A DNA stretch of 37,830 bases from Patescibacteria group bacterium UBA5187 (GCA_002413065.1 DHWH01000010.1:348-38177), one strand, 5' to 3'. Counted from the stretch's first letter, positions 16,667 through 37,830 are shown. Notes: generated by a model not told the origin, from the sequence alone. Numbers and translations: made by a program.

Positions 16667-18176
16667 ATGAGCCAGATGAAAGAACTATCTACAGACATTC
16701 TTATTATAGGGGCGGGTCCTGCGGGAATGGCTGCAGCTATGGAACTTTCCAAGGCAAAAAAAGATTTCATTATCATTGAACGATCGGCATCTGTCGGCGG
16801 CCTTTCCAAAACCTATGCGTTCAAAGAGGGCGATCTGACATTCTATACCGACAATGGTCCCCATCGTTTCTTCTCAAAAAATCCCTATTTGTACGAGTTC
16901 ATCGGCGATCTGCTCAAGGAACAGTGGATAAAAGTAATCCGTCAGACTCGCCAATTCATTGACGGAAAATTTTATGATTATCCGGTGAATGCGCCGCAAG
17001 CCCTTCGCAATATGGGACTCATCAAGTCGGCCCATGTCGGGTTTGATTATTTCTGGGCCAAGATCGTATATGGCGTTTTCAAGAAACCAGTCAAGAATTT
17101 TGAAGATTACGTGATCGCCAATTTCGGGCGTTCGCTGGGAGATTTTAATATTATAAATTATACGGAAAAAGTCTGGGGCATCCCTGCGGCTGAAATTCAT
17201 CCTGACTGGGCGACCCAGCGCATCAAGGGGCTTGATCTCTTGGCGGTCATGAAAGATACGATCCGCCGCGTGATGAAGAAAAAAAGCGCCAGTGGTGCTG
17301 GTGCACCCAAGTCTCTTGTTGACGTGTTTTATTATCCGGATCAGGGGACAGGACTTATTTATGAAACCATACGCGCGCGCCTCGAAGAGCAAGGGTATGT
17401 CATCATGCTCAATTCGTCTCCGAAAGAAATTCAATGCACAAATGGAAAGATGACCAAAGCAATTATCGATACGCCTGAGGGGGGAAATTGCCATAAAATT
17501 CAACTCGCTCGTAGAGTCCGTGCCGATGACCGAATTTATAAAAATCCTGAAGCCTGCCGCACCGCAAAGGGTCATCAAGGCGCTTGCATCCCTTCGTCAC
17601 CGCAGTCAGGTATATATGTTCGTCACGCTTGATAAGGAATCGGTTACAAAGGATCAGTGGATCTATTTTCCATCCCAGAATATTCCCATTGGCCGTGTCA
17701 GTGAAATGAAGAATTTCAGCACATTCATGAGTCCGCCAGGAAAGACATCTTTGTTCTTGGAATTTTTCTGTTTTGAAAATGATTCCGTCTGGAATATGAC
17801 TGCGGATGAGCTCTATGAATATATGATGCCGCACGTGGAAAAAGTCGGCCTATTCACTCGCAAGGAAGTTCGCAAATACTACCTGATCAAGCAGAAAAAT
17901 GTATATCCGATATACGATCTCGATTATAAGAATCCTCTCGGTGTAGCCAAGGAGTTTCTCAATAATTTCAAGAATCTCTACTACATAGGCAGGCCCGGAC
18001 GCTTCCGCTACAACAATCAGGACCACTCCCTGGAAATGGGCATGTGCGCGGCCAAGAGCATTATCGAAGGGAAACACTACGATATCGAATCGATCGGCGA
18101 AGAGAAAGAGTACTATGAAAAAGGTTCGGTGCACGATGCGACGTCCAAACACGAGACAGTGCCCAAGAATGCATGA
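16667..18176 (+). pseudogene. FAD/NAD(P)-binding oxidoreductase (amine-oxidase/protoporphyrinogen-oxidase-like, the type seen in polysaccharide loci), split by a 1-nt insertion in a G6 run
   Basis: Dinucleotide-binding motif 'ILIIGAGPAGMAAA'. ORFs 16631..17632 and 17520..18176 are two halves of one protein. Removing one G from GAGGGGGGA (G run 17479-17484) restores '...AIIDTPEGEIAIKFNSLVESVPMTEFIKILKP...' and yields a single ORF of about 502 aa. Confidence 0.75.
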
Positions 18177-19642
18177 TATTTTCAGTAGATAAAAAGTCCT
18201 CTTGTTTCTTGCCGATTATTCTCGGCATTATTTTTGTGATCATATATATTCCTCTCTGGGGATGGACGGTGCATGTCGCGCATGAACAGGAGCAGGTACA
18301 CAGGGAGGATATCATGCCAGTTCTGGGCTTGGAAGATTCCCTCAATTACCGCGTTCTCGCGGATAACCTTATCCGGCATCATGTCTTTTCTGCGCAGACC
18401 AGCGAGCCATTCATTCACGAGACATTCCGAGTTCCGGGGTATCCATTTTTTGCCGCATTAATTAAAGCGATCGCAGGTTCGTATCTTGCCGTTTCATTCG
18501 TTCAGGTCATTCTCACGTTCGTCACTTCTCTCCTTATATTTTTCCTAGGGAAGAAATTGCATTCGCAGAGAGTCGGATTCATCGCTGCTCTGCTGTTTAT
18601 CATTGATCCTGTCGTTGTCCAGTATACGCTTCTTATGATGTCTGATATTTTGTTCGTCTTTCTGATCACGCTTGCTGTTTATATTTATCTGAATGGATTT
18701 ACATCGGTTGCGCCACTCGCATCATCGGCCTCATCCGTACCGTCGGCATGGCAGGCTTTGAAACGTATGGCAAGTGTCGGACTGATATTGGGTATGGCGA
18801 CTTTGGTAAGGCCTATCTCAATGTATCTCATTATTCCGCTGGTATGCCTTGAATTATTCAGGAATTATTCAAGCGTCGGCTGGAAAAAAAGAATTGCCGC
18901 CGCACTCTGTATCCTTGTCGCATTCGCCGCATGTATTGTTCCGTGGATGATTCGAAACAAGGTGGCAAGCGGCGTCCTCGCAGTATCCTCTATTTCCACT
19001 TACAATCTTTTTGCTTTCAATTTGCCTGGATATTATTTATTTCATGATGGCATCCCTGAATCGCAGACCAAGGAAGCTTTTTTCAGGGAAGCCGGAGGGA
19101 TCAACGAAGATCAGGCGTGCATGCTCGAGTATGCCGGCGTCATCGGCCCTGTCGTATCCGGCAATCTCAAAGAGCATTTTTTCTCGTATGCCTACTTTCA
19201 TATTGCCAAGGTTACTTCGTTCTTTTTCTCATCATCGTACGAATCTCTTCTTACTACATATCTGCAGGTGAGTCCTTACAGAACTGCCCCCATCGAAATT
19301 ATCAAAGACCCGCATCTGAGCGATTTATTCGCCCGGCATGAATGGGTCAGGCTCGGCAAGGGTCTTATGTCGCATATTCCTGCGCTGATCGAGCGTATAT
19401 TCTGGGGCATTATGTTTCTCTGTGCCTGTGCCGCGGTCTGGGTATACAGGCGTTCTGTTGCTGTATGGATGTATGCCGGACTCATCGCGTATTTCGCTGT
19501 CGTTACAGGTCCGGTTGCCAATGCCAGATATCGTTTGCCCGGCATGCCATTTTTGTTCTTGTTGGCGGTTATGGGGATTGTTGCTTTGTGGCCGCTATTG
19601 GTGTGTCTAATGTGTCCGCGGATAGAGGAGAAGAAGCTGTAG
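18173..19642 (+). CDS. GT-C family membrane glycosyltransferase (ArnT/PMT, GT39/GT83-like)
   Basis: 489 aa and polytopic. The first-loop block 'LEDSLNYRVLADNL...ETFRVPGYPFFAALI' resembles PMT_2/ArnT-type enzymes. The ATG overlaps the upstream TGA (ATGA). Confidence 0.7.
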   Translation: MIFSVDKKSSCFLPIILGIIFVIIYIPLWGWTVHVAHEQEQVHREDIMPVLGLEDSLNYRVLADNLIRHHVFSAQTSEPFIHETFRVPGYPFFAALIKAIAGSYLAVSFVQVILTFVTSLLIFFLGKKLHSQRVGFIAALLFIIDPVVVQYTLLMMSDILFVFLITLAVYIYLNGFTSVAPLASSASSVPSAWQALKRMASVGLILGMATLVRPISMYLIIPLVCLELFRNYSSVGWKKRIAAALCILVAFAACIVPWMIRNKVASGVLAVSSISTYNLFAFNLPGYYLFHDGIPESQTKEAFFREAGGINEDQACMLEYAGVIGPVVSGNLKEHFFSYAYFHIAKVTSFFFSSSYESLLTTYLQVSPYRTAPIEIIKDPHLSDLFARHEWVRLGKGLMSHIPALIERIFWGIMFLCACAAVWVYRRSVAVWMYAGLIAYFAVVTGPVANARYRLPGMPFLFLLAVMGIVALWPLLVCLMCPRIEEKKL

Positions 19643-19696: not shown

Positions 19697-20953
19697 TTAT
19701 TTTTCATGGCTTTTTTTCAGAAGGATGATCGGCAAGATGGTGTTAAACGTGTGTGAAAGTATCTTGGCGACGATCGCTCCCCACAATCCGTAAAAATATA
19801 TGGCTATGAACATGATCACGATTTTGACGATAGGTCCGACTGTTCCCACGATATAGAGCTGTTTTTGAAGGCGCTTCGCGAAAAGGGCGCTCAACGATAT
19901 GTTCGCCATAATGGCGATCAAAGATATCGAAAATACCTGCGAGTAGAGAACCGAATTTTCATATTGAGGGAAGAGCCAGTGGAATGCCGTTGGAGCGATC
20001 AGGATGTAGACTATGGAAATGACGACGGCAATGATGAAGAGCTGGATGCTTTTGCGCCAAATATTCGCGGGCATGGTCGAGTTCTCGTTTTCTGAAAGTT
20101 TCGGCAATGCCGCGGTGGAAATAAAACTGAATAGTACGCGTATGCGTTCAGGAATGGATATCGCGAACGTGTATATGGCGAGTGTCGCCGGACCGAGAAA
20201 GTAATATAGGATCACACTGTCGAGCTGTGCCGCTATCATGCCGAGTATATTGAGAAAGCTGAGATGTTTTCCGTATACGATATCGGCCGGGTCGTAAACG
20301 GGCGAGGGTTTGTATTTTTGGTAGGTCCGTATGCAGAAAAAAATATTCGTGAAGGCATTGGCGGCATAGTAAGCCAGTATAAGATAAGGGACAGAAGGAA
20401 AATAGAATGCCGCCGTTCCGACAAGTATGAAATAAAAAATACTCGAAAAGATGCCATATGACGCCAATGTCCTGAATTCCTTTTTGCCCTGAAGAAAACC
20501 GCTGTATGTGTTCGCGACGCTTGAGAGGGGATACAAGATCGCAATGATGATAAAACATATCCCGTATGCATTATTCGAATGCAGAAAATAATATACGCTG
20601 AATGCCAGCGAGAATGCGCTCGACAGGAGTACCCATTTGAGCTGGACATAGAGGGACTTTTTGAATATTCCTTCACGTCCTTTTGCCACGGCCTGTGTCA
20701 CCGCCGTATTCATTCCCGATAGCGTAAGCGCGACGCCGATGCCCGCTATGGACAGAATATATTTGTAAATGCCGAATACCTCCTTTGAAACGAAATGCGC
20801 AAATAGGATTGAGAGTCCGAATGAGACCAGTGCGCCTACCACTTGGTTCGAGGTGAGCCAAAATCCGCTCTGTGCGGCGTAAACCATATCCGTCTTGGTG
20901 TATTTTTCAGTCCAGCGTAGGAATCTGTAGCTCCGGTCCTTGAGTTTTTCCAT
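19697..20953 (-). CDS. Wzx-like oligosaccharide/polysaccharide flippase (MOP superfamily)
   Basis: 418 aa with about 12 hydrophobic segments. The N-terminus 'RFLRWTEKYTKTDMVYAAQSGFWLTSNQVVGALVSF...HFVSKEVFGIYKYILSI' is typical of polysaccharide biosynthesis (Wzx/RfbX) proteins. Confidence 0.75.
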   Translation of the reverse strand: MEKLKDRSYRFLRWTEKYTKTDMVYAAQSGFWLTSNQVVGALVSFGLSILFAHFVSKEVFGIYKYILSIAGIGVALTLSGMNTAVTQAVAKGREGIFKKSLYVQLKWVLLSSAFSLAFSVYYFLHSNNAYGICFIIIAILYPLSSVANTYSGFLQGKKEFRTLASYGIFSSIFYFILVGTAAFYFPSVPYLILAYYAANAFTNIFFCIRTYQKYKPSPVYDPADIVYGKHLSFLNILGMIAAQLDSVILYYFLGPATLAIYTFAISIPERIRVLFSFISTAALPKLSENENSTMPANIWRKSIQLFIIAVVISIVYILIAPTAFHWLFPQYENSVLYSQVFSISLIAIMANISLSALFAKRLQKQLYIVGTVGPIVKIVIMFIAIYFYGLWGAIVAKILSHTFNTILPIILLKKSHEK

Positions 20954-21094: not shown

Positions 21095-23284
21095 ATGAAA
21101 AAGATCACGAAATATATTGCTGTTGCGGCATTGTTCCTTGTTCCTATTTTTCCTCTTATTGTCGCAAATTCCTTCTTTTTCCCATTCATAACAGGCAAGG
21201 CATTTTATTTCCGGATTCTTATCGAACTTGCTTTTGCAAGCTGGATTATCCTGGCTTTCCTTGATGCCAAGTTCAGGCCGAAGCTCACTGCACTTACAGT
21301 AGGCATCAGTTTGTTCGCATTGATCGCTCTCGTTGCCGATCTTCTCGGCGTCAATCCTCTTCGCAGTCTTTGGTCAAACTTTGAACGTATGGAGGGATGG
21401 ATAACCATCCTACACTTGTGGGCTTTCTATATCGTGGCGACAAGCATTTTTGGTTCCGGCGAAGAAGGAAAACACCTCTGGCACCGCTGGCTCAATACCT
21501 CGCTGGCCGTTGCCTTCATTGTTGCCCTGTACGGTCTCTTCCAATTATTCGGTTGGGCGCAAGTTCACCAGGGAAGCACTCGTCTCGACGCTTCGCTTGG
21601 TAACTCTGCATACATGGCTGTCTACATGCTTTTCCACGCCTTTATCGCGGCATATTTCTTTTTTGTGGCGCGCATGAAGCGGGCAAAGAATATGGCCAAT
21701 GCCGCAGTCCATCAATGGGTCTACGGAATCGTCTCGGTTCTCTTCGCTTTTATTATTTTTGAAACTCAGACCCGCGGAACCATTCTCGGTCTTATTGGCG
21801 GCATTATGCTTGCTTTGGCCTTGTATGCGATTTTCGGCAAAGGCGAACCAAAAAAGTGGCGCTGGATTTCCGCAGGATTTATCGGCTCCATCATTCTTCT
21901 GGGCATTATTTTCTGGTTCAATCGCACCAATCCAATAATAGAGAGAAATCCGGTCCTCGGACGCTTCTCGCATATTTCATGGACTGATTCCAGTAATCAG
22001 GCTCGTCAGTATATCTGGCCAATGGCATTGAAAGGCGCCATGGAGCGGCCTGTTCTCGGCTGGGGTCAGGAAAATTTCAATTACATCTTTAATGCCGGTT
22101 ACAATCCCGCTATGTATGCGCAGGAACAATGGTTCGATCGCGCGCACAATGTCTTTATCGATTGGCTCGTGGCATCCGGTATAGTCGGTGTCATCGCGTA
22201 TCTCGCATTGTATGTTTTGTTTCTTATTGCCGTATGGAAGTCATCGCTGACTGTTGCGGAAAAAAGCGTTCTTACAGGCCTTCTGGCCGGATACTTCGTC
22301 CACAATGTTTTCGTGTTCGATAACCTGGCAAGTTACGCATTATTCTTCGGAATGCTCGGCTTCGTCAATTCGCTGAAAGAAGGAAAACATATTCGCTTGC
22401 TTGGAACAGAGCCGGCCCGTGTCGATGGCGTCGAGTATGTCGTGGCGCCTGTCGTTATCGTGGCCTTGGTGTTCGTACTATATTTCTTTGACGTTCGCGT
22501 CATTCGTGCAAACACATCTCTCATCGCCGCTCTTCGGGCATGCGGCAGTCCGCAGGCAAGTCCTTCCTTATTTGAGAAGACGCTGGGAGTGGACGCGTAT
22601 GTTGCGAATCAGGAGATCCGAGAGCAGCTGCTTTCATGTGCAGGAAATGTCATTGCAAGCCAGACTATCCCGGGTCCTACCAAGCAGGCATTTTTCGGTT
22701 TGGCTACGCGCGAAATTCAGGCTCAGATAGCCGCAACGCCGAATGATGCGCGCATATACGTTCTTGGCGGCTCATTCCTGAATGGAATTGGACAATACGA
22801 ACAGGCAGAAGGACTTTTGGAAACAGGCCATCAGCTGACGCCAAAAAAGCAGTCGCTTGATTTTGAGCTTGCGAACGATTATCTCAATACAGGAAAGAAA
22901 GAAAAGGCAGTCGAACTCCTCAAGCAGGCTTACGAATCGGCACCTGATTTCCCTCAGGCCAAGTCGGCATATGCCATTACGCTTATTGTTTCAGGAAGAG
23001 AAGCGGAAGCACGAACCATATTCAAAAATGATCCGGAGGTGTTCAATACGGCACAAATGGCTCAGGTATACGCTTCTCTCAAGCAGTATTCAAAAGCAGT
23101 TGCCATTTATGAGGAAATGGTAAAGAAAGATCCTGCGAATATCGAAATACGCGCACAATTGGCGCAAATGCAATATACGGCCGGCATGGTGAGTCAGGCT
23201 ATTCAGACTTTGCGCGACATTGAGAAGACCAACCCGGAACTCAAGGATAAAATAGAAGCGGCTATCAAGCAGGTTCAGAAATAA
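21095..23284 (+). CDS. O-antigen ligase (Wzy_C)-family polytopic membrane protein fused to C-terminal TPR repeats
   Basis: 729 aa. The polytopic N-terminal two thirds contain 'FETQTRGTILGLIGG' and 'PVLGWGQENFNYIF'. The C-terminal ~200 aa carry TPR-like repeats ('LANDYLNTGKKEKAVELLKQAYESAPDFPQA', 'MAQVYASLKQYSKAVAIYEEMVKKDPAN'). Confidence 0.8.
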   Translation: MKKITKYIAVAALFLVPIFPLIVANSFFFPFITGKAFYFRILIELAFASWIILAFLDAKFRPKLTALTVGISLFALIALVADLLGVNPLRSLWSNFERMEGWITILHLWAFYIVATSIFGSGEEGKHLWHRWLNTSLAVAFIVALYGLFQLFGWAQVHQGSTRLDASLGNSAYMAVYMLFHAFIAAYFFFVARMKRAKNMANAAVHQWVYGIVSVLFAFIIFETQTRGTILGLIGGIMLALALYAIFGKGEPKKWRWISAGFIGSIILLGIIFWFNRTNPIIERNPVLGRFSHISWTDSSNQARQYIWPMALKGAMERPVLGWGQENFNYIFNAGYNPAMYAQEQWFDRAHNVFIDWLVASGIVGVIAYLALYVLFLIAVWKSSLTVAEKSVLTGLLAGYFVHNVFVFDNLASYALFFGMLGFVNSLKEGKHIRLLGTEPARVDGVEYVVAPVVIVALVFVLYFFDVRVIRANTSLIAALRACGSPQASPSLFEKTLGVDAYVANQEIREQLLSCAGNVIASQTIPGPTKQAFFGLATREIQAQIAATPNDARIYVLGGSFLNGIGQYEQAEGLLETGHQLTPKKQSLDFELANDYLNTGKKEKAVELLKQAYESAPDFPQAKSAYAITLIVSGREAEARTIFKNDPEVFNTAQMAQVYASLKQYSKAVAIYEEMVKKDPANIEIRAQLAQMQYTAGMVSQAIQTLRDIEKTNPELKDKIEAAIKQVQK

Positions 23285-23320: not shown

Positions 23321-23779
23321 ATGATTGCCTGGCTAAAAGGGAAATATACTACCGCCTGCATTGCCTATCCGGTATCCGCCAAAATTGGCAGGTACGTTAT
23401 TTCCGGAGGCACCGCTGCTGCAGTCAATCTGGTACTTCTTTATATCCTCACGGAATATGCCGGCATGTGGTATCTCTTGTCAGCAGTATGCTCGTTCATC
23501 ATCGCCTTCGGCGTAAGCTTTATTTTGCAAAAGAGCTGGACATTCCAGGATGCATCGAAAGACGGCATTCATCGTCAGCTCCTCGCTTATTTATTAGTTG
23601 CCTTGATCAACTTGGGCCTCAATACCGCTTTGCTGTATTCATTTGTGGAATATGCAAAACTGCATTATCTGCTCTCGCAAATTATGGCCGGCATCATTGT
23701 CGCGGCCGAAAGCTTCTTTGTGTATCAGATTTTTATCTTCAAAAAGCCCCAGATTCAAGCCGAGGTCGAAGCCGAATAG
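23321..23779 (+). CDS. GtrA-family small membrane protein
   Basis: 152 aa with 4 TM segments. 'RYVISGGTAAAVNLVLLYILTEYAGMWYLLSAVCSFIIAFGVSFILQKSWTF' matches the GtrA-like family pattern. Confidence 0.8.
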   Translation: MIAWLKGKYTTACIAYPVSAKIGRYVISGGTAAAVNLVLLYILTEYAGMWYLLSAVCSFIIAFGVSFILQKSWTFQDASKDGIHRQLLAYLLVALINLGLNTALLYSFVEYAKLHYLLSQIMAGIIVAAESFFVYQIFIFKKPQIQAEVEAE

Positions 23780-32633: not shown

Positions 32634-34088
32634 TTATGAAAGTTTCTCGAGGAGAAGTTTCTTCAGCATCTCAGGGTTTGCGGAGCCTTTTGTGGCCTTC
32701 ATTGCTTGGCCGATGAGGAATTGTAGGGAGGCTACTTTACCAGCTTTATATTCAGTGATGGCTACAGGGTTGTCCATAATGATTTTTTCGAGTGTGGGAA
32801 TGAGGTCTGCGGCATTACTTTTCTGAATGAGGCTGTGCTTTTCGGCGAGTGCTTTTGGTGAGGCTGACGAGTCCTGCAGCAATAATACCAAGAGGTCCTT
32901 TGTTCCGCGCGACGACAAATCTCCAGCAGCGGTCATGTTGATGAGTTCGGCGAATGAGGTGGTCGGGATGCGTGATAATGTTGCGGTGTCGAAATCGAGC
33001 ATACCTTCTTTTTTGAGCATGCCTACATAATCAGTAAGGAGGTAGTTCACGGTAAGTTTTACTTTTTTGAGATCGGTTGTGTAGGAAGAGATGATAGATT
33101 CGAAATACTTCGCGATCATCGGTGATTCGATGAATACTGCAACCTCTTTGTCGGTCATGCCGAAAACAGTTTTGAAACGGTCGCGTTTGATCCACGGCAA
33201 TTCAGGAATTTCTTTTGCGAGTGCCTCGTGCGAGAATTCCGGCACCTGGCTCACTTTTAATTTTGCGATATCAGGATCAGGAAAATATCTGTAGTCATGT
33301 GAACTTTCTTTACTGCGCTGAGAATATGTTTCTTGCTTACCATCATCCCATCCGCGCGTCTCCTGCGAAACCTTCTTACCTTTTTGGAGGAGGGAAGACT
33401 GACGTTCGATCTCGCATGCGATCGCACTTTCGACTGCACGAAACGAGTTTAGATTTTTAACTTCGGTCTTCGTGCCGAATTTTTTGTTGAGCGTATCTTC
33501 GGGTGTTGCGATCGAAATATTTGCTTCGATGCGCATTTCTCCTTTTTCCATATTTGCTTCTCCGGCTCCAAGATAACGGAGAAGGAGTTGCAATTCTTTT
33601 GCGAACCTGACAGCAGTCGCCGCATCATGTATGACGGGTTTTGTAACGAGCTCCATGAGCGGAACTCCGGATCTGTTGAAATTCACCAAACTTTTTTCAT
33701 GAGCATCGTGCGTCGACTGAGCAGTGTCTTCCTCAAGGTGTATGCGTTCGAGTTCAACAGAGGCGAGAGTGCCATTGGAAACAAGAGGGTATTTGTATTG
33801 AGTGATCTGATATCCTTTTGGAATATCGGGATAGAAATAATTTTTACGATCCCATTCAGTAAAATCTGCTAGTGTGCCACCGACAGTAATACCCATTTTG
33901 AGAACATGCTTGATCGCTTTCATGTTGAGCACAGGAAGCGTGCCGGGATGTCCAAGGCAGATGGGGCATACGTTCACATTCGGCTTTTCTTCGTCAGGAT
34001 TGTTTCTGCAAGAACAAAACATCTTGGAAGATGTTTTGAGTTCGGCATGAATCTCAAGGCCGATAGTCGGTATGTATTTGGTTTCCAT
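32634..34088 (-). CDS. gatB: Asp-tRNA(Asn)/Glu-tRNA(Gln) amidotransferase subunit B
   Basis: 'IGLEIHAELKTSSKMFCSC', 'VCPICLGHPGTLPVLN', 'DRKNYFYPDIPKGYQITQ' and the C-terminal YqeY-like tail are canonical GatB features. Confidence 0.93.
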   Translation of the reverse strand: METKYIPTIGLEIHAELKTSSKMFCSCRNNPDEEKPNVNVCPICLGHPGTLPVLNMKAIKHVLKMGITVGGTLADFTEWDRKNYFYPDIPKGYQITQYKYPLVSNGTLASVELERIHLEEDTAQSTHDAHEKSLVNFNRSGVPLMELVTKPVIHDAATAVRFAKELQLLLRYLGAGEANMEKGEMRIEANISIATPEDTLNKKFGTKTEVKNLNSFRAVESAIACEIERQSSLLQKGKKVSQETRGWDDGKQETYSQRSKESSHDYRYFPDPDIAKLKVSQVPEFSHEALAKEIPELPWIKRDRFKTVFGMTDKEVAVFIESPMIAKYFESIISSYTTDLKKVKLTVNYLLTDYVGMLKKEGMLDFDTATLSRIPTTSFAELINMTAAGDLSSRGTKDLLVLLLQDSSASPKALAEKHSLIQKSNAADLIPTLEKIIMDNPVAITEYKAGKVASLQFLIGQAMKATKGSANPEMLKKLLLEKLS

Positions 34089-34112
34089 GAAGAGAAGTGT
34101 AGCGACAGGACT

Positions 34113-34361
34113 CTAATCAGTCAAATGCTGAACAACCAGCTTCCGGACCTCCTTTTTATTGGGTTTCTTGCCTTTACTGGATTCAATCTCCATAAGGAGC
34201 TTCTCGATGTCTTCGAGCTTATAAACCCTATAGTTATTGATAGGATGTCGCGATGCGCAGAATTTGCCGCTGTTGTCCCAGTTCCGCAGGGTCAAAGGAG
34301 TCACACCCAATATCTTGGCTGCATTTTTTATGGTGATGAGTTTTATGGTTGAGATATCCAT
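34113..34361 (-). CDS. MerR/excisionase-type helix-turn-helix DNA-binding protein (82 aa)
   Basis: 'ITIKNAAKILGVTPLTLRNWDNSGKF...RHPINNYRVYKLEDIEKL' matches the MerR-type HTH pattern. It lies 24 nt upstream of gatB on the same strand. Confidence 0.7.
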   Translation of the reverse strand: MDISTIKLITIKNAAKILGVTPLTLRNWDNSGKFCASRHPINNYRVYKLEDIEKLLMEIESSKGKKPNKKEVRKLVVQHLTD

Positions 34362-34793
34362 AGATTAATAAACATTACTATACATTGATAAATATGATAG
34401 TTGAATAAGAAGTTTTTATCATAGTTTATGAAATAATATCAAGTTACCAGATCAGATGATTACATTTTAGCATATCATTCGAAAGATGTAACAGGTGATG
34501 TGACACTATAACTCATTCAAGATTCATCAAGTTATTAAATTACCCAAAAGTTTATTAAATGAGCTTGAAAATGTAGCTCTTTATCAGAAAAGATGGCGCC
34601 TATTTATCTCTTTTGAGGATCCTTTTGCTCTAGCGAGCGTATATCGAGTTACTGACGGTGTCGTCAGAATGATATTTTCTTTTATCACCCTCCTCCACTA
34701 TACCATTCAAAAAATAGTTGGTGTGATGAGTTGTCCACAGAATTTTCGATAAAATAAACACCATATCCGATGTATACTTGTAGGCAAAGGAAC

Positions 34794-35825
34794 ATGAAAG
34801 ATATCTTTAATTTTCAAGGTAAAAATTACATCTCGGCAAAACGAGCTTCCGACATCTCGGATTACTCTTCTGACTATATTGGACAACTTTGCCGTGCTCA
34901 GAAACTTGATTGCCGGATGATTGGACACTCCTGGTTTGTCACGGAAGAGTCATTAAAAACCCATAAGGAAAATGTGCTCAAGGATGAGATTTGCAGGAAC
35001 CGTCTCGACAACCTGCGCGGCAAGAAAAATCAGGCAAAGCAAGCCGCAACGGAAGCGGTCATAGTTCAACTGCCGACATTCATTGCTGACTCCGCAGACA
35101 CATTCCCAAAAGCATCTCCAGAAATATCTCAGGAGATCTTGCCTGAAGCATCTAAGGAAAAAGTTGACGATGAGTATGCATCACTCGCAAGGTCAGTCAT
35201 GCTTAGACGAATTCTTAATCCCGTCATCGTTGTATGTCTCGTGTTCGGCATCACAGTTGGGACAATCTTTACGAGCACGCACATGTCCACGGATTCCGGA
35301 CAGGGAAATAATTCGGCAAGCGTGTATGATGCGGTCAAGTCCATTTTTGCATTTATCCGTGACGAATATGACACAGTGCTCGCGCTCTTTGGTCACGGGA
35401 GTACGCTCACTTTGAACACAGAACTTGTGTCGCCGAATACAAGACAGGTGCCGCCGCTATCACCGTCATCTGTTTCTTTAGATCCGCCGATCGCATCTTC
35501 GGCTGCTCCCGCTATTCCCATTGTCACTCCCGATACTGCCAAAACCGTTACTCAGACATCCGATGCTACTACGAAGAAAATTCCAACGAATAGCGATCCC
35601 GGGTCAGGTATGGCGGTAGTGCCCTCTACAGGCGGAGTGAATATGGATGATGTGCTCAAGAAAAAAATCCAGGGTTCCTTCTCCGATCAGGTTGATGTTC
35701 GACCGGATGTGAGCGGAACGGCAGGCGTGATCACCCCCGTATTTCGTGAAGCCAAAGGCAAAGATTTTATTTATGTGATGGTCCCGGTCAAGCCAACGCA
35801 AAAAACCGATCCAGGCACGCATTAA
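34794..35825 (+). CDS. Single-pass membrane protein with an N-terminal HTH-like cytoplasmic domain and a Ser/Pro/Thr-rich extracytoplasmic region
   Basis: ATG 34794 is preceded by AAAGGA. 'YISAKRASDISDYSSDYIGQLCRAQKLDCRMIGHSWFVTEESL' is excisionase/MerR-HTH-like. There is a TM segment 'ILNPVIVVCLVFGITVGTIFT', then a low-complexity S/P/T-rich stretch, then a conserved-looking C-terminus 'GVITPVFREAKGKDFIYVMVPVKP'. Confidence 0.6.
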   Translation: MKDIFNFQGKNYISAKRASDISDYSSDYIGQLCRAQKLDCRMIGHSWFVTEESLKTHKENVLKDEICRNRLDNLRGKKNQAKQAATEAVIVQLPTFIADSADTFPKASPEISQEILPEASKEKVDDEYASLARSVMLRRILNPVIVVCLVFGITVGTIFTSTHMSTDSGQGNNSASVYDAVKSIFAFIRDEYDTVLALFGHGSTLTLNTELVSPNTRQVPPLSPSSVSLDPPIASSAAPAIPIVTPDTAKTVTQTSDATTKKIPTNSDPGSGMAVVPSTGGVNMDDVLKKKIQGSFSDQVDVRPDVSGTAGVITPVFREAKGKDFIYVMVPVKPTQKTDPGTH

Positions 35826-35863
35826 CAAATTATTGAATTTTATAACCACTTAAACTTATTACC

Positions 35864-36553
35864 ATGATACGAAACAGCATCAATTCAATACTCTACGCCA
35901 GCGCCCTTCTTTTTGTACTGGGCGGGCTATTCACCCTGGCGGAACCGGCTATCGGTTTTGGGGCCGCTACGTCGACTTCGCAATTCATAATCTCGCAGGT
36001 AGTAACATCCGAGATCTCATTCCAAACGCCTGCCACGAATATCACCCTCAGTCCGTCTATCGGAGGTTTGAGCGGAGGTTCATCGGACGGTACGACTCAG
36101 GTAGTCGTCTCTACGAACAATCTGACCGGATATACGATGACTCTTGCGGCAAGTTCGTCCGTAGGAATGATCGGAAATGCCGCTCCATCAAATAACATTC
36201 CCGCATACGTGTCTTCAGTGGCCAATGTGCCTGACTACACGTTCACCACTCCTTCCAACAAGGCTCGTTTTGGATATACGATTTCCGCTTCGACAACCGC
36301 CGAGCTCGATCAAAAATTCCTTACAAATGGGTCTGCATGCAATACTGGTTCCACTAATCCCGGATTGCTTCATTGCTGGCTCAATGCCTCGACGACGGCA
36401 GTAACTCTGATTACATCGGCCGCACCCACGGCCGCTTCCGGTTCAACCTCGACGCTGGCTTTCCATGTCGTTATCAATGCAAATCCGACTCCGGCCATTC
36501 CCAATGACACATATGTGGCCACTACGACATTAACAGCCGTTACCAACCCTTAA
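35864..36553 (+). CDS. Secreted Ser/Thr-rich beta-rich protein, WxL-domain-like or pilin-like architecture
   Basis: 229 aa. N-terminal hydrophobic signal 'ILYASALLFVLGGLFTLAEPA'. About one third Ser/Thr and very few charged residues. It has 'TTQVVVSTNNLTGYTMTLAAS' and the terminal strand 'NDTYVATTTLTAVTNP', plus two Cys in 'GSACNTGSTNPGLLHC'. Confidence 0.65.
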   Translation: MIRNSINSILYASALLFVLGGLFTLAEPAIGFGAATSTSQFIISQVVTSEISFQTPATNITLSPSIGGLSGGSSDGTTQVVVSTNNLTGYTMTLAASSSVGMIGNAAPSNNIPAYVSSVANVPDYTFTTPSNKARFGYTISASTTAELDQKFLTNGSACNTGSTNPGLLHCWLNASTTAVTLITSAAPTAASGSTSTLAFHVVINANPTPAIPNDTYVATTTLTAVTNP

Positions 36554-37633
36554 ATGAAATCTTCACGCACACACTCTATATATAGTATGTTTGCAAGCAT
36601 CGTATGTGCGACGGTTTTTGCATTTAGCATTTCTGTGCTCGTGACTTCACAGGCATCGGCCGCTACATCAAAGTCTGTATCCAAATCTGCAACCACTGCT
36701 TCATCTAAAACAGCGTCCACATCCGTCGCTCTTGCATACGCCATATATCCATTGCCCGACGCCAAGGTCTATAACGATTTTGTGATCGGTCCCGGAAAGA
36801 TCGAACTTGCGCTCAATCCCGGCGAATCCAGGACGGTGAATGTCACCATCGCCAATCGTCTTGGAGCTGAAAAGATATTCAATGTTACTGAAGAAGATAT
36901 CATCGGCTCGCGCGATCTCGCCAAAGCGGTGGTGCTTCTTGGAGATGACCGGGGCCCGTATTCATTGAAGGATATTCTCAATATTCCTTCGGCCCTGATC
37001 AAAATTCCCCATGGGCAAAAAGTTTTCCTTCCCGTCACTATCTCCGTACCGGCGAATGCACAGCCGGGCGGCATGTATGGAAGTGTCGTAGTCTCGGTCG
37101 CAAGCAGTCCGCAAACGGGAGCTACAAATGAAGGAGCAAGCATTGCCAGCAATCCTGTCATCACACGCTTGGCCGCGTTGTTCTTTGTTCGTGTCGCGGG
37201 TCCGGTCGCCGAACAAGGAAAGTTGACCCAGTTTTCTCTCGGAGGCAATCGCTCGATACTTTTCGAGAATGATCCGGTGAACTTTGACCTTGTATTTGAA
37301 AATACGGGAAATATCCACCTTGTTCCGAACGGAATGATCACGATAACGAATCTTGCGGGCGCTCCGGTCGGAACCGTTGCGGTTGATCCCTGGTTCGCGA
37401 TGCCGCAGTCGCTGCGTTTCCGGGAAGTCACATGGGCGCCGCCGTTTCTTTTCGGCCGATATGTGGCGCATGCGGTCATCAATCGCGGCTACGGCAGTAC
37501 GACAGATGTCATGGATGTCGTCTTCTGGGTCATTCCATGGAAGATCATTGCAGTCATTCTTATAGGATTGATACTTCTGATAAGTTCGATCCGTTGGATT
37601 GCTTCACGATTCCATATTTCGAGACGTCAATAA
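36554..37633 (+). CDS. Signal-peptide protein with two Ig-like beta-sandwich modules and a C-terminal TM anchor (DUF916/DUF3324-like architecture)
   Basis: 359 aa. Signal 'FASIVCATVFAFSISVLVTSQASA'. 'LALNPGESRTVNVTIANR', 'VPANAQPGGMYGSVVVS' and 'FDLVFENTGNIHLVPNGMITITN'. C-terminal TM 'IIAVILIGLILLISSI' followed by a basic tail. The ATG immediately follows the upstream TAA. Confidence 0.65.
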   Translation: MKSSRTHSIYSMFASIVCATVFAFSISVLVTSQASAATSKSVSKSATTASSKTASTSVALAYAIYPLPDAKVYNDFVIGPGKIELALNPGESRTVNVTIANRLGAEKIFNVTEEDIIGSRDLAKAVVLLGDDRGPYSLKDILNIPSALIKIPHGQKVFLPVTISVPANAQPGGMYGSVVVSVASSPQTGATNEGASIASNPVITRLAALFFVRVAGPVAEQGKLTQFSLGGNRSILFENDPVNFDLVFENTGNIHLVPNGMITITNLAGAPVGTVAVDPWFAMPQSLRFREVTWAPPFLFGRYVAHAVINRGYGSTTDVMDVVFWVIPWKIIAVILIGLILLISSIRWIASRFHISRRQ

Positions 37634-37641
37634 AATAGCGT

Positions 37642-37830
37642 ATGAATTTTTCAACAAAAACAAAACAGACGATGCGGGCAATGCGAGAAATACGCGCAGC
37701 ACAGGCAGTGCGCACCTTGTTTGCGGGCGTATGTATGCCGGCATTGGTTTTTGTATTGGCTTTTGCCGGCGTGCGCACAGTGTACGGACAAGCCATGTCG
37801 AGTTCCAACTACAAGATACAAAGCGATACG
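37642..37830 (+). CDS. 5' part of a further secreted protein (runs off the window)
   Basis: ATG 37642 lies 8 nt after the upstream stop. There are 63 codons without a stop: a basic N-region, a hydrophobic core 'LFAGVCMPALVFVLAFAG', 'VYGQA', then 'MSSSNYKIQSDT'. It is absent from the ORF track because no stop codon lies within the window. Confidence 0.5.
   Translation, partial: MNFSTKTKQTMRAMREIRAAQAVRTLFAGVCMPALVFVLAFAGVRTVYGQAMSSSNYKIQSDT

Follow-up and report, generated by a model that had tools for sequence, protein, structure and literature searches.

Most candidate phyla radiation (CPR) bacteria are uncultured and thought to live attached to host cells, and the way in which they build attachment organelles is little understood. 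At the downstream end of a 37,830-nucleotide (nt) stretch of DNA from Patescibacteria group bacterium UBA5187 (DHWH01000010.1:348-38177), in the following called the window, four co-directional genes, here named g1 to g4, are separated by intergenic gaps of 38, 0, and 8 nt. A first-pass annotation of the stretch had noted this packing, which was borne out by the coordinates of the called open reading frames (ORFs), and had interpreted the genes as a candidate for an undescribed surface complex comprising a WxL-like protein (g2), a DUF916/DUF3324-like protein (g3), and a membrane-tethered protein with a helix-turn-helix (HTH)-like N-terminus (g1). The locus thus raises the question of whether a CPR bacterium carries a WxL complex or a surface structure of another kind. 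We found that g3 is a remote homolog of the WxLIP/DUF916 proteins, whereas g2 could not be linked to WxL domains. In the interpretation that we favor, the operon, which comprises six genes when followed beyond the window, probably builds an usher-less surface fiber held together by donor-strand complementation, a distant and simplified variant of the Pam pilus of CPR bacteria.

A conserved six-gene operon in Patescibacteria

The window is part of a 95,238-bp JGI contig (L002), on which the operon runs on to six genes, g1 to g6. The first-pass annotation had described g4 as starting with a signal peptide and being cut by the window edge; a signal-like N-terminus was indeed evident from hydropathy, and extension into the contig recovered the complete g4 gene and two downstream partners, g5 and g6, which are followed by a gene for an RNA recognition motif (RRM) protein. 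The components are listed below with window coordinates, or with contig coordinates where L002 is given.

34794..35825, plus strand: g1, single-pass membrane protein with an HTH_17-like N-terminal module, a transmembrane (TM) segment (residues 140-158), a linker rich in S, T, and P, and a C-terminal domain of ~60 amino acids (aa) that is conserved
35864-36553, plus strand: g2, 229 aa (ORF call), candidate shaft pilin
35864..35962, plus strand: signal peptide of g2, ~residues 1-33 (alignment, hydropathy, and a helix at residues 2-33 in the AlphaFold2 model)
35978..36031, plus strand: N-terminal strand of g2, 'SQFIISQVVTSEISFQTP', ~residues 39-56, candidate donor strand (conservation, disorder in the monomer model)
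36032..36553, plus strand: beta-sandwich of g2 ("W domain"), residues 57-229, with a conserved Cys pair, candidate strand-acceptor pilin domain (AlphaFold2, Foldseek)
36554..37633, plus strand: g3, 359 aa, membrane-anchored two-domain protein (DUF916/WxLIP-like domain ~62-185, immunoglobulin [Ig]-like domain ~205-327, TM segment ~329-352)
37642..37830, plus strand: g4, first 63 codons (full protein of 275 aa at L002:8106-8933), PamT-like paralog of g2
L002:8941-10146: g5, 401 aa, with a signal peptide, fibronectin type III (Fn3)/Ig-like domains, and a C-terminal TM segment
L002:10148-13885: g6, 1245 aa; a signal peptide is followed by head repeats resembling those of YadA/BpaC, and the protein also has motifs of the sequence 'GNVGIGTTSP' and a tail rich in S, T, and P

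Relatives of g3 were found in at least 159 of the 185,579 species genomes scanned, and the best 80 loci were used for gene-order counts. All of these were from metagenome-assembled genomes of Patescibacteria (Taylor-, Kaiser-, Nomura-, Zambryskii-, Jackson-, and Falkowbacteria, Paceibacterota, and Parcubacteria), one of them being labeled 'Nanoarchaeia'. The g2-type gene adjoined g3 in 75 loci and g3 adjoined a g4-type gene in 72, with the triad intact in 67. A g4-type gene was next to g5 in 62 loci, and g1 was located immediately upstream of the g2-type gene in 47. The complete order g1 to g6 was present in 28 of the 80 loci, many of which are cut by contig ends. In view of these counts, the arrangement is not due to chance, and the conserved neighborhood in related CPR genomes that the first-pass annotation had proposed as a check on its idea was found to be strong. 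The contig labeled 'Candidatus Nanoarchaeia archaeon' (L045, DATGWK010000115.1) has the full bacterial gatB-merR-g1-g5 block and is probably mis-binned.

g3 is a remote homolog of WxLIP

Hydropathy analysis of g3 gave two peaks, a signal-like one at residues 12-30 and a TM segment at residues 331-349, matching helices at residues 8-26 and 329-352 in the AlphaFold2 model. Between them the model contains two beta-sandwich domains, and its mean predicted local distance difference test (pLDDT) value is 85. The g3 protein of the window scored 21.4 bits (E value, 2.7e-4) against the DUF916 model of Pfam (PF06030), which is under the gathering score of 27.3, and 58 of the 61 members of the g3 family matched this model, with a best E value of 3.6e-7. 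The single sequence matched the solved Enterococcus faecium WxLIP1 (9i1y, 9i25_C) at an E value of 1e-4, and a profile of the 61 members matched the same protein (EfmWxLIP1, PDB 9i25_C) at 1e-8. When g3 was aligned with 13 WxLIPs of Firmicutes taken from plasmids, hhalign returned a probability of 97% and an E value of 1e-10, the N-terminal 'Y.D' motif being included in the alignment.

The fold comparison led to the same family. With the g3 model as a query, the best Foldseek match was 9i1y_A (E value, 6.6e-13), and as this alignment spans 278 columns, g3 aligns over both WxLIP domains. The next matches were RbmA and then the chaperones of chaperone-usher systems, namely, CfaA, CsuC, Caf1M, FimC, PapD, and DraB. 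For the second domain, the DUF3324 model (PF11797) matched none of the 61 family members, and the hhalign alignment covered the first domain only. Thus, g3 is a remote homolog of WxLIP/DUF916. The architecture assigned in the first-pass annotation stands with respect to the DUF916 homology, the signal peptide, the two Ig-like modules, and the TM anchor; its DUF3324 half is recognizable by fold only. The first-pass annotation was also right about the unexpected taxonomic placement: it had regarded a divergent WxL/Csc locus in a CPR-like genome as new, and a search of the available literature library turned up no paper that connects WxL or DUF916 with CPR. By its modeled fold, g3 is a candidate chaperone or strand donor, and the loop 184-204 or the segment 'NPVITRLAALFF' is a candidate for the strand that would enter the groove of a partner.

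Some further observations concern g3 and its relatives. The public gene call starts at Leu67 and yields a protein of 293 aa that has lost the signal peptide; for the region dropped, an antisense ORF of 64 aa has been called instead (window 36554-36751; L002:7014-7208, minus strand). The longer ORF, with the 0-nt gap to g2, agrees with the family. Fusions of g3 and g4 of ~575 aa occur in several lineages (P0112, P0097; L038:8866-10587) and retain the g3 TM helix, a short basic loop, and the g4 signal peptide with its cleavage site. Four plasmids (L010, L014, L015, and L016, of Bacillus pXO1-type, Listeria, and B. pumilus), two of which are conjugative according to PLSDB typing, carry a WxL-WxLIP gene pair among transfer-type genes. 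The neighbors of the pair are genes for a CpaF/VirB11 ATPase and CpaB (L010, L014, L016) or for a relaxase, a topoisomerase, and a single-stranded DNA-binding protein (L015), which hints at an involvement of WxL complexes in mating contact.

g2 is not recognizable as a WxL domain

The assignment of g2 to the WxL domain was rejected, as profile, profile-profile, and motif comparisons all failed. The Pfam WxL model (PF13731) gave no match in g2 at an E value of ≤10, nor in 60 family members at ≤5. Alignment by hhalign with 9 WxL sequences had a probability of 1.2%, and that of 134 g2-type sequences with 23 WxL domains had one of 1.3%; the WxL alignments were built from annotated Firmicute loci and verified with Pfam, the 23 domains coming from 13 Firmicute plasmid loci. 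In reciprocal searches with hidden Markov models (HMMs) at an E value of ≤1, the WxL HMMs matched no CPR ORF and the g2 HMM matched no Firmicute ORF, whereas WxLIPs were recovered at 1e-9 in the g3 control.

The WxL domain is defined by two Trp-x-Leu motifs on adjacent strands, with a D/R/GTxG turn before the first (PMC9772566). Both motifs are absent in g2, which has 'TNN..GY.MT' and 'TL.A...P' instead, that is, 'GY.M' and 'L.A'. The only Trp residue of g2 is invariant and lies within a C..CW motif, not at a WxL-like position. The spacing of the C-terminal 'Y..T.TL.A...P' of g2 equals that of the WxL motif 'Y..TLTW.L...P', as judged by eye and from the register of a non-significant hhalign alignment. 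At the level of structure, the solved WxL chain 9i25_A, which is contained in the structure library, was not among the best 50 of the 767 Foldseek matches of the g2 model. The descent of g2 from WxL proteins that the first-pass annotation had suspected found no backing in the profile comparisons or among the 50 best structural matches.

g2 combines a conserved strand with a pilin-like domain

The general description of g2 given in the first-pass annotation, a protein of 229 aa with a signal sequence, about one-third Ser/Thr, and few charges, proved accurate: Ser and Thr account for 29% of the residues (32% in the mature part), and 11 residues are charged. Glu27-Pro28, located before the predicted cleavage region, is invariant in the family. 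The strand that follows the signal peptide belongs to the best conserved 10-residue segments in the family, at 2.48 bits per position. In the AlphaFold2 monomer, which has an overall pLDDT of 89.5, this strand is disordered (pLDDT of <50 at residues 39-47). Neither the single sequence nor a 60-member profile matched any Pfam, NCBIfam, or PDB sequence. Among the best 50 Foldseek matches, which were those examined, the leading ones were subunits of donor-strand fibers, namely, CfaB, TasA, PapE (1n12), CS17, and Fim subunits.

The g2-type domain is not restricted to small proteins. An exhaustive profile search matched 586 clusters at 50% identity, and in 139 of 140 representatives the domain ended ≤5 aa from the C-terminus. 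In all 20 proteins of ≥400 aa it was C-terminal, and the match included the preceding strand. The modules located ahead of it in large proteins were Beta_helix, Laminin_G_3, Cadherin-like, DUF2341, and DUF285. One metagenome contig (L098:2732-17179) contains three consecutive giant genes of 1452-1679 codons (DUF2341, Laminin_G_3, Cadherin-like), each ending exactly in a g2-type domain; a fourth giant gene follows them and is cut by the locus end, and no g3 was found within 8 kb.

g4 is related to PamT, and g5 shares the strand motif of g2

g4 is a paralog of g2 (BLASTP E value, 3e-25; hhalign probability, 100%). As the alignment of the two proteins begins at about residue 55 of g2, after its N-terminal strand, g4 lacks a strand of the g2 type, and an N-terminal 'SxNY' module is found in its place. 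A sequence search of the PDB with g4 matched nothing. In NCBIfam, g4 matched the model NF058579, CPR_pilus_PamT, at an E value of 2.1e-12 (47 bits; profile positions 6-129 of 241). The same model was matched by all 40 g4 family members tested (best E value, 7.4e-14), which matched no other NCBIfam model. As the equivalog cut-off of this model is 240 bits and the profile is covered only in part, g4 is to be regarded as a homolog of PamT and not as its equivalog.

An 18-column HMM of the g2 strand was run against all ORFs with a length of ≥150 aa in 82 loci, restricted to their N-terminal 120 residues, with matches counted at ≥5 bits. As expected, it matched all 74 g2-type proteins; beyond these it matched 22 of 67 g5 proteins and a single one of 543 other ORFs. 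This one lies directly upstream of a g3 gene and is probably a divergent g2. No match was obtained in g4 (0/74), g3 (0/82), g1 (0/59), or g6 (0/48). In g5, the motif sits right after the signal peptide cleavage site, as in 'EDQFIISQTVTG', which follows the residues AA at the cleavage site, and in 'ADNTFTTSLTITG', which follows AHA in the operon of the window itself; homologs of g5 with the motif include those of L045, L047, and L083. Otherwise, g5 gave a weak Fn3 match to the PDB only, and its hhalign match to Firmicute WxLIP (81%) extended over just 46 columns in the region of the second WxLIP domain. g5 and g3 are not detectable paralogs (hhalign, 6%). In g6, residues 263-377 form head repeats of the YadA/BpaC type (PDB 7o23_A; E value, 4.8e-12), and neither a g2-type domain nor a TM anchor nor a donor-strand motif was found in this protein.

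Proposed assembly of a strand-exchange fiber

These features can be combined into a scheme in which every step is inferred and none was observed directly. All components would be exported by Sec. g3, held in the membrane by its C-terminal helix, would retain the subunits after their export by donating a beta-strand to the Ig-like domain, which is incomplete in them, as modeled on WxLIP-WxL, the Pap/Fim chaperones, and the role proposed for PamC and PamD. As g4 has an acceptor domain and no donor strand, it could start the fiber at the distal tip. In g2, a conserved strand is combined with an acceptor domain, for which reason this protein could polymerize head to tail to form the shaft. Large proteins with lectin, beta-helix, or cadherin-like parts, at the end of which this strand and domain recur, may join the fiber as adhesins. 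With a donor-strand motif at the start of its mature part and a TM segment near its C-terminus, g5 would close the fiber at the base and keep it tethered in the manner of PamR. The giant g6 would be the tail-fiber/YadA-like protein of the operon, and g1 and a divergently oriented MerR gene are candidate regulators. An acceptor-only g4, a donor-acceptor g2, a donor-only anchored g5, and a chaperone-like g3 would thus together provide a complete grammar of strand exchange.

The closest known counterpart of such a fiber was described by Troman et al. (2026; bioRxiv 10.64898/2026.03.03.709456), who identified the pilins PamA and PamB by cryo-electron microscopy of filaments of Ca. Mycosynbacter amalyticus. 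PamA and PamB, which rank with the most abundant proteins, are each built of a sandwich at the N-terminus, a linker donor strand, and, at the C-terminus, a truncated Ig-like domain; they assemble by donor-strand exchange. PamT, a single truncated Ig domain without the linker strand, was assigned to the tip. The folds of PamC and PamD resemble those of FimC/PapD, and both proteins have TM helices at their C-termini. PamR resembles RbmA, has an additional strand at the N-terminus as well as a TM helix at the C-terminus, and was proposed to terminate and anchor the fiber; a tail-fiber-like gene is a constant neighbor of the Pam genes. The accession numbers of the M. amalyticus proteins are WP_260763287.1 for PamA, WP_260763280.1 for PamB, WP_260763277.1 for PamC, WP_260763284.1 for PamD, WP_260763282.1 for PamR, and WP_260763289.1 for PamT. 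The reported distribution covers mainly Saccharimonadia and Microgenomatia, and the preprint makes no mention of WxL, WxLIP, DUF916, Paceibacteria, or Parcubacteria.

The two systems have in common a CPR host, the lack of an usher and of an outer membrane, Sec-exported Ig-like subunits with disulfides, and a single-domain tip protein without donor strand (PamT and, as its candidate here, g4) for which the sequence similarity is significant. Compared by description, the two-domain helpers with a C-terminal TM segment and chaperone- or RbmA-like folds (PamC, PamD, and PamR) would correspond to g3 and g5, the base anchor with an extra N-terminal strand (PamR) to g5, and the tail-fiber-like neighbor to g6. 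They differ in that PamT is the only component detectable by sequence, far below the cut-off, and in that g2 is a one-domain protein of 229 aa whereas PamA (55 kDa) and PamB (39 kDa) carry an additional nine-strand N-terminal domain. Furthermore, there is one chaperone-like gene here but two in Pam, the first gene of the operon encodes a membrane-tethered HTH protein, and the operon lies next to gatB, not next to ATP synthase as Pam does. The lineage is also different, being of the Paceibacteria/Parcubacteria type. The designation "undescribed" in the first-pass annotation does not hold entirely, as the g4 family is a distant relative of PamT of the described CPR pilus. Membership of a described family such as pilins, which had been named as evidence that would speak against a WxL-type complex, is approached through PamT without being reached strictly, as all scores are far under the PamT family cut-off.

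Similarities to other fibers are more general. With chaperone-usher pili (Pap/Fim, class 5 CFA/I, and archaic Csu), the operon shares the fold of g2 (CfaB, PapE, Fim) and of g3 (CfaA, CsuC, Caf1M, FimC, PapD), a logic of tip, shaft, and terminator based on donor strand and groove, and adhesins with a C-terminal pilin domain. The differences are the lack of an usher and outer membrane and the membrane anchorage of the chaperone-like g3; no usher-like gene was present in the 17-kb locus, and no Pfam Fimbrial or PapD match was obtained. TasA, the Bacillus ENA fibers, and the Pyrodictium cannulae are likewise usher-less fibers of strand-complemented beta-sandwiches, and 8aur, 9i65, and 9h8b (CanA) were among the fold matches of g2. 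The matches to TasA (TM-score, 0.29; root-mean-square deviation, 10.8) and F-ENA (9i65_E; TM-score, 0.10-0.14; probability, 0.04) were weak, and these systems differ in having no dedicated two-domain membrane-anchored chaperone and in the other content of their operons.

Alternative explanations

In the accepted model of WxL complexes, WxLIP donates a strand to its partner. The operon could encode a static display complex of the WxL/WxLIP type, in which the anchored g3 holds g2, g4, and the large proteins with the same terminal domain non-covalently at the cell surface by strand insertion and nothing polymerizes. The nearest relatives of g3, Enterococcus WxLIPs that include the one in the solved WxLIP-long-WxL complex 9i25, speak for this explanation, as does the position of a single WxLIP-like gene between two small paralogous partners, the commonest layout of WxL clusters (PMC10599100). 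As in the WxL/WxLIP (Csc) clusters found in Bacilli (Siezen 2006; Hassan & Williamson 2022/2023; 9i1y, 9i25), g3 combines a signal peptide, the DUF916 domain with its 'Y.D' motif, a second Ig-like domain, and a TM segment. The partner domain is always C-terminal, in small forms and at the end of large multidomain adhesin-like proteins alike, just as for WxL (PMC9772566), and the C-terminal motif of g2 mirrors the WxL spacing, by inspection and in the non-significant hhalign register mentioned above. On the other hand, the partner is not a WxL protein by HMM, profile-profile alignment, or motif, although the same methods recover the link between g3 and WxLIP; g2 has neither Trp-x-Leu motif, and 9i25_A is outside its top 50 fold matches. 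By a published definition (PMC10599100), a WxLIP gene is part of a WxL cluster when two or more WxL-domain proteins are encoded no more than four genes away, and the locus falls outside this definition, as the flanking g2 and g4 are paralogous to each other and neither is a WxL-domain protein. Further differences from the clusters of Bacilli are the CPR host in place of a Firmicute, the lack of an LPxTG protein or sortase in the cluster, and a DUF3324 part undetectable by sequence. The conserved N-terminal strand of the partner is also present in a second membrane-anchored protein; a strand common to g2 and g5 and absent from g4 implies polymerization and, like the relationship to PamT, is left unexplained by static docking. 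We therefore consider a purely static complex unlikely. At the level of the interaction of g3 with its partners, static docking and a fiber are not mutually exclusive.

It could also be that the genes encode independent envelope or surface (S)-layer-like proteins, co-located for the sake of co-regulation, and that the fold matches reflect nothing but generic Ig folds. Ig-like sandwiches do give many weak Foldseek matches, as illustrated by the 411 matches of g3 at an E value of ≤1e-3, which include arrestins and transglutaminase, and the E values for g2 are weak. But the gene order kept over ~80 divergent genomes, the recurrent fusions of g3 and g4, the fact that g3 and DUF916, and likewise g4 and PamT, are significantly homologous in sequence, and the specific strand motif common to g2 and g5 make this explanation highly improbable.

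Several points weigh against the donor-strand fiber that we favor. The Foldseek scores of g2 were weak, with CfaB at an E value of 4e-3 and a TM-score of 0.51 and the scores ranging from 0.36 to 0.51. The g2 and g3 families gave no match to an NCBIfam model with a CPR-pilus name, of which PamT is the one identified here, and the g4 match to PamT has a low score and is confined to the N-terminal half of the profile. The strand motif is recognizable in only about one-third of the g5 homologs at the threshold of ≥5 bits, and the candidate pilin has one domain versus two in PamA and PamB. Strand insertion is predicted from motifs and fold matches, the fiber of this lineage is predicted from its genes, and the Pam proteins other than PamT were compared by the description in the preprint. 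Moreover, a static docking complex would be compatible with these data as well. In view of these points, we regard the fiber as the probable, but by no means certain, product of the operon.

g1 and the genomic neighborhood of the operon

The single-pass topology and HTH-like N-terminus that the first-pass annotation had assigned to g1 were supported, the former by hydropathy, which revealed one TM segment at residues 140-158, and the latter by an HTH_17-type module recognized at the family level. The N-terminal consensus of the family reads 'gKkYISA.rAs.i.gY.sDYiGQLCR.gKld..mvGR.WFV.EeSl'. Pfam HTH_17 was matched by the homolog in L037 with 40.3 bits (cut-off, 27), and three others had E values of 0.01-0.03. 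An alternative start ATG is located at 34770. The linker after the TM segment is variable (31% S+T+P), and the C-terminal external motif 'SFSDEV.V.PD.SGT.GVITPVF' is kept in the family. From these features, we infer that g1 may be a membrane-tethered regulator. Several homologs (L018, L022, L037) have a tandem duplication of the HTH_17-like module (window 34794-35100). The region upstream of g1 contains the following features.

34113..34361, minus strand: MerR-family HTH protein, 82 aa, divergent from g1 (Pfam MerR_1, E value 1.2e-8; MerR, E value 1.4e-7)
34362..34793, no strand: AT-rich divergent intergenic spacer of 432 nt, 31.7% GC compared with 46.4% for the window

The small MerR gene adjoins g1 in 35 of the 80 related loci, and in loci without it two g1 paralogs are often found side by side. 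When the HTH module of g1 was aligned with the neighboring MerR family by hhalign, the register was correct, with a probability of just 8.6%. The spacer is presumably the promoter region of both the MerR gene and g1 to g6. Promoter-like hexamers were no more numerous in it than expected from shuffled sequence, no Rfam family matched it, and a terminator scan gave nothing above background. The first-pass annotation had termed it the largest AT-rich intergenic region; it is the most AT-rich large gap, but not the longest ORF-free one, which is located at 476-999 and comprises 524 nt if ORFs shorter than 110 aa are disregarded. Beyond the spacer, on the same side as the divergent MerR gene, lies gatB. 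In 47 of the 80 loci, which are very divergent, gatB, often with the small MerR gene (window 32634-34361), adjoins the operon, and its orientation varies.

A block of glycosylation and polysaccharide genes is located at 1000-24000 of the window, 11-30 kb upstream of the operon (e.g., 18173-19642, 19697-20953 on the minus strand, 21095-23284, and 23321-23779). It encodes glycosyltransferases of the GT2, GT4, and GT47-like types, methyltransferases, a PMT-family protein mannosyltransferase, a flippase, GtrA, and a Wzy_C+TPR protein resembling O-antigen ligase/PglL; MurB and SecA follow after the block. As a modification has been reported on Ser356 of PamA (bioRxiv 10.64898/2026.03.03.709456), the enzymes of this block may, by analogy, glycosylate the Ser/Thr-rich fiber proteins.

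Implications

The homology of g3 to WxLIP allows a broader, tentative proposal, which is possible but goes well beyond the fiber itself. According to it, the membrane-anchored helper of CPR donor-strand pili and the WxLIP (DUF916) of Bacilli are homologous, and WxL complexes and CPR pili are separate branches of a single ancient system by which single-membrane bacteria complement strands without an usher. The minimal form of this system would be that of Parcubacteria-type CPR, with a one-domain pilin, an acceptor-only tip, a donor-only membrane anchor, and giant lectin/beta-helix adhesins that are encoded elsewhere and plug in via their C-terminal pilin domain.

If a minimal Pam-type pilus is indeed formed, the largest class of CPR (Parcubacteria/Paceibacteria) would gain a tip, a shaft, an anchor, a helper, and a candidate regulator for such a structure. 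The conserved strand together with the C-terminal domain would be a short motif by which giant surface proteins riding on the fiber could be predicted. Finally, the homology of the helper to WxLIP would tie a little-understood adhesion and virulence system of Gram-positive bacteria to donor-strand pilus assembly and would offer an evolutionary link to the chaperone-usher principle in cells that have no outer membrane.

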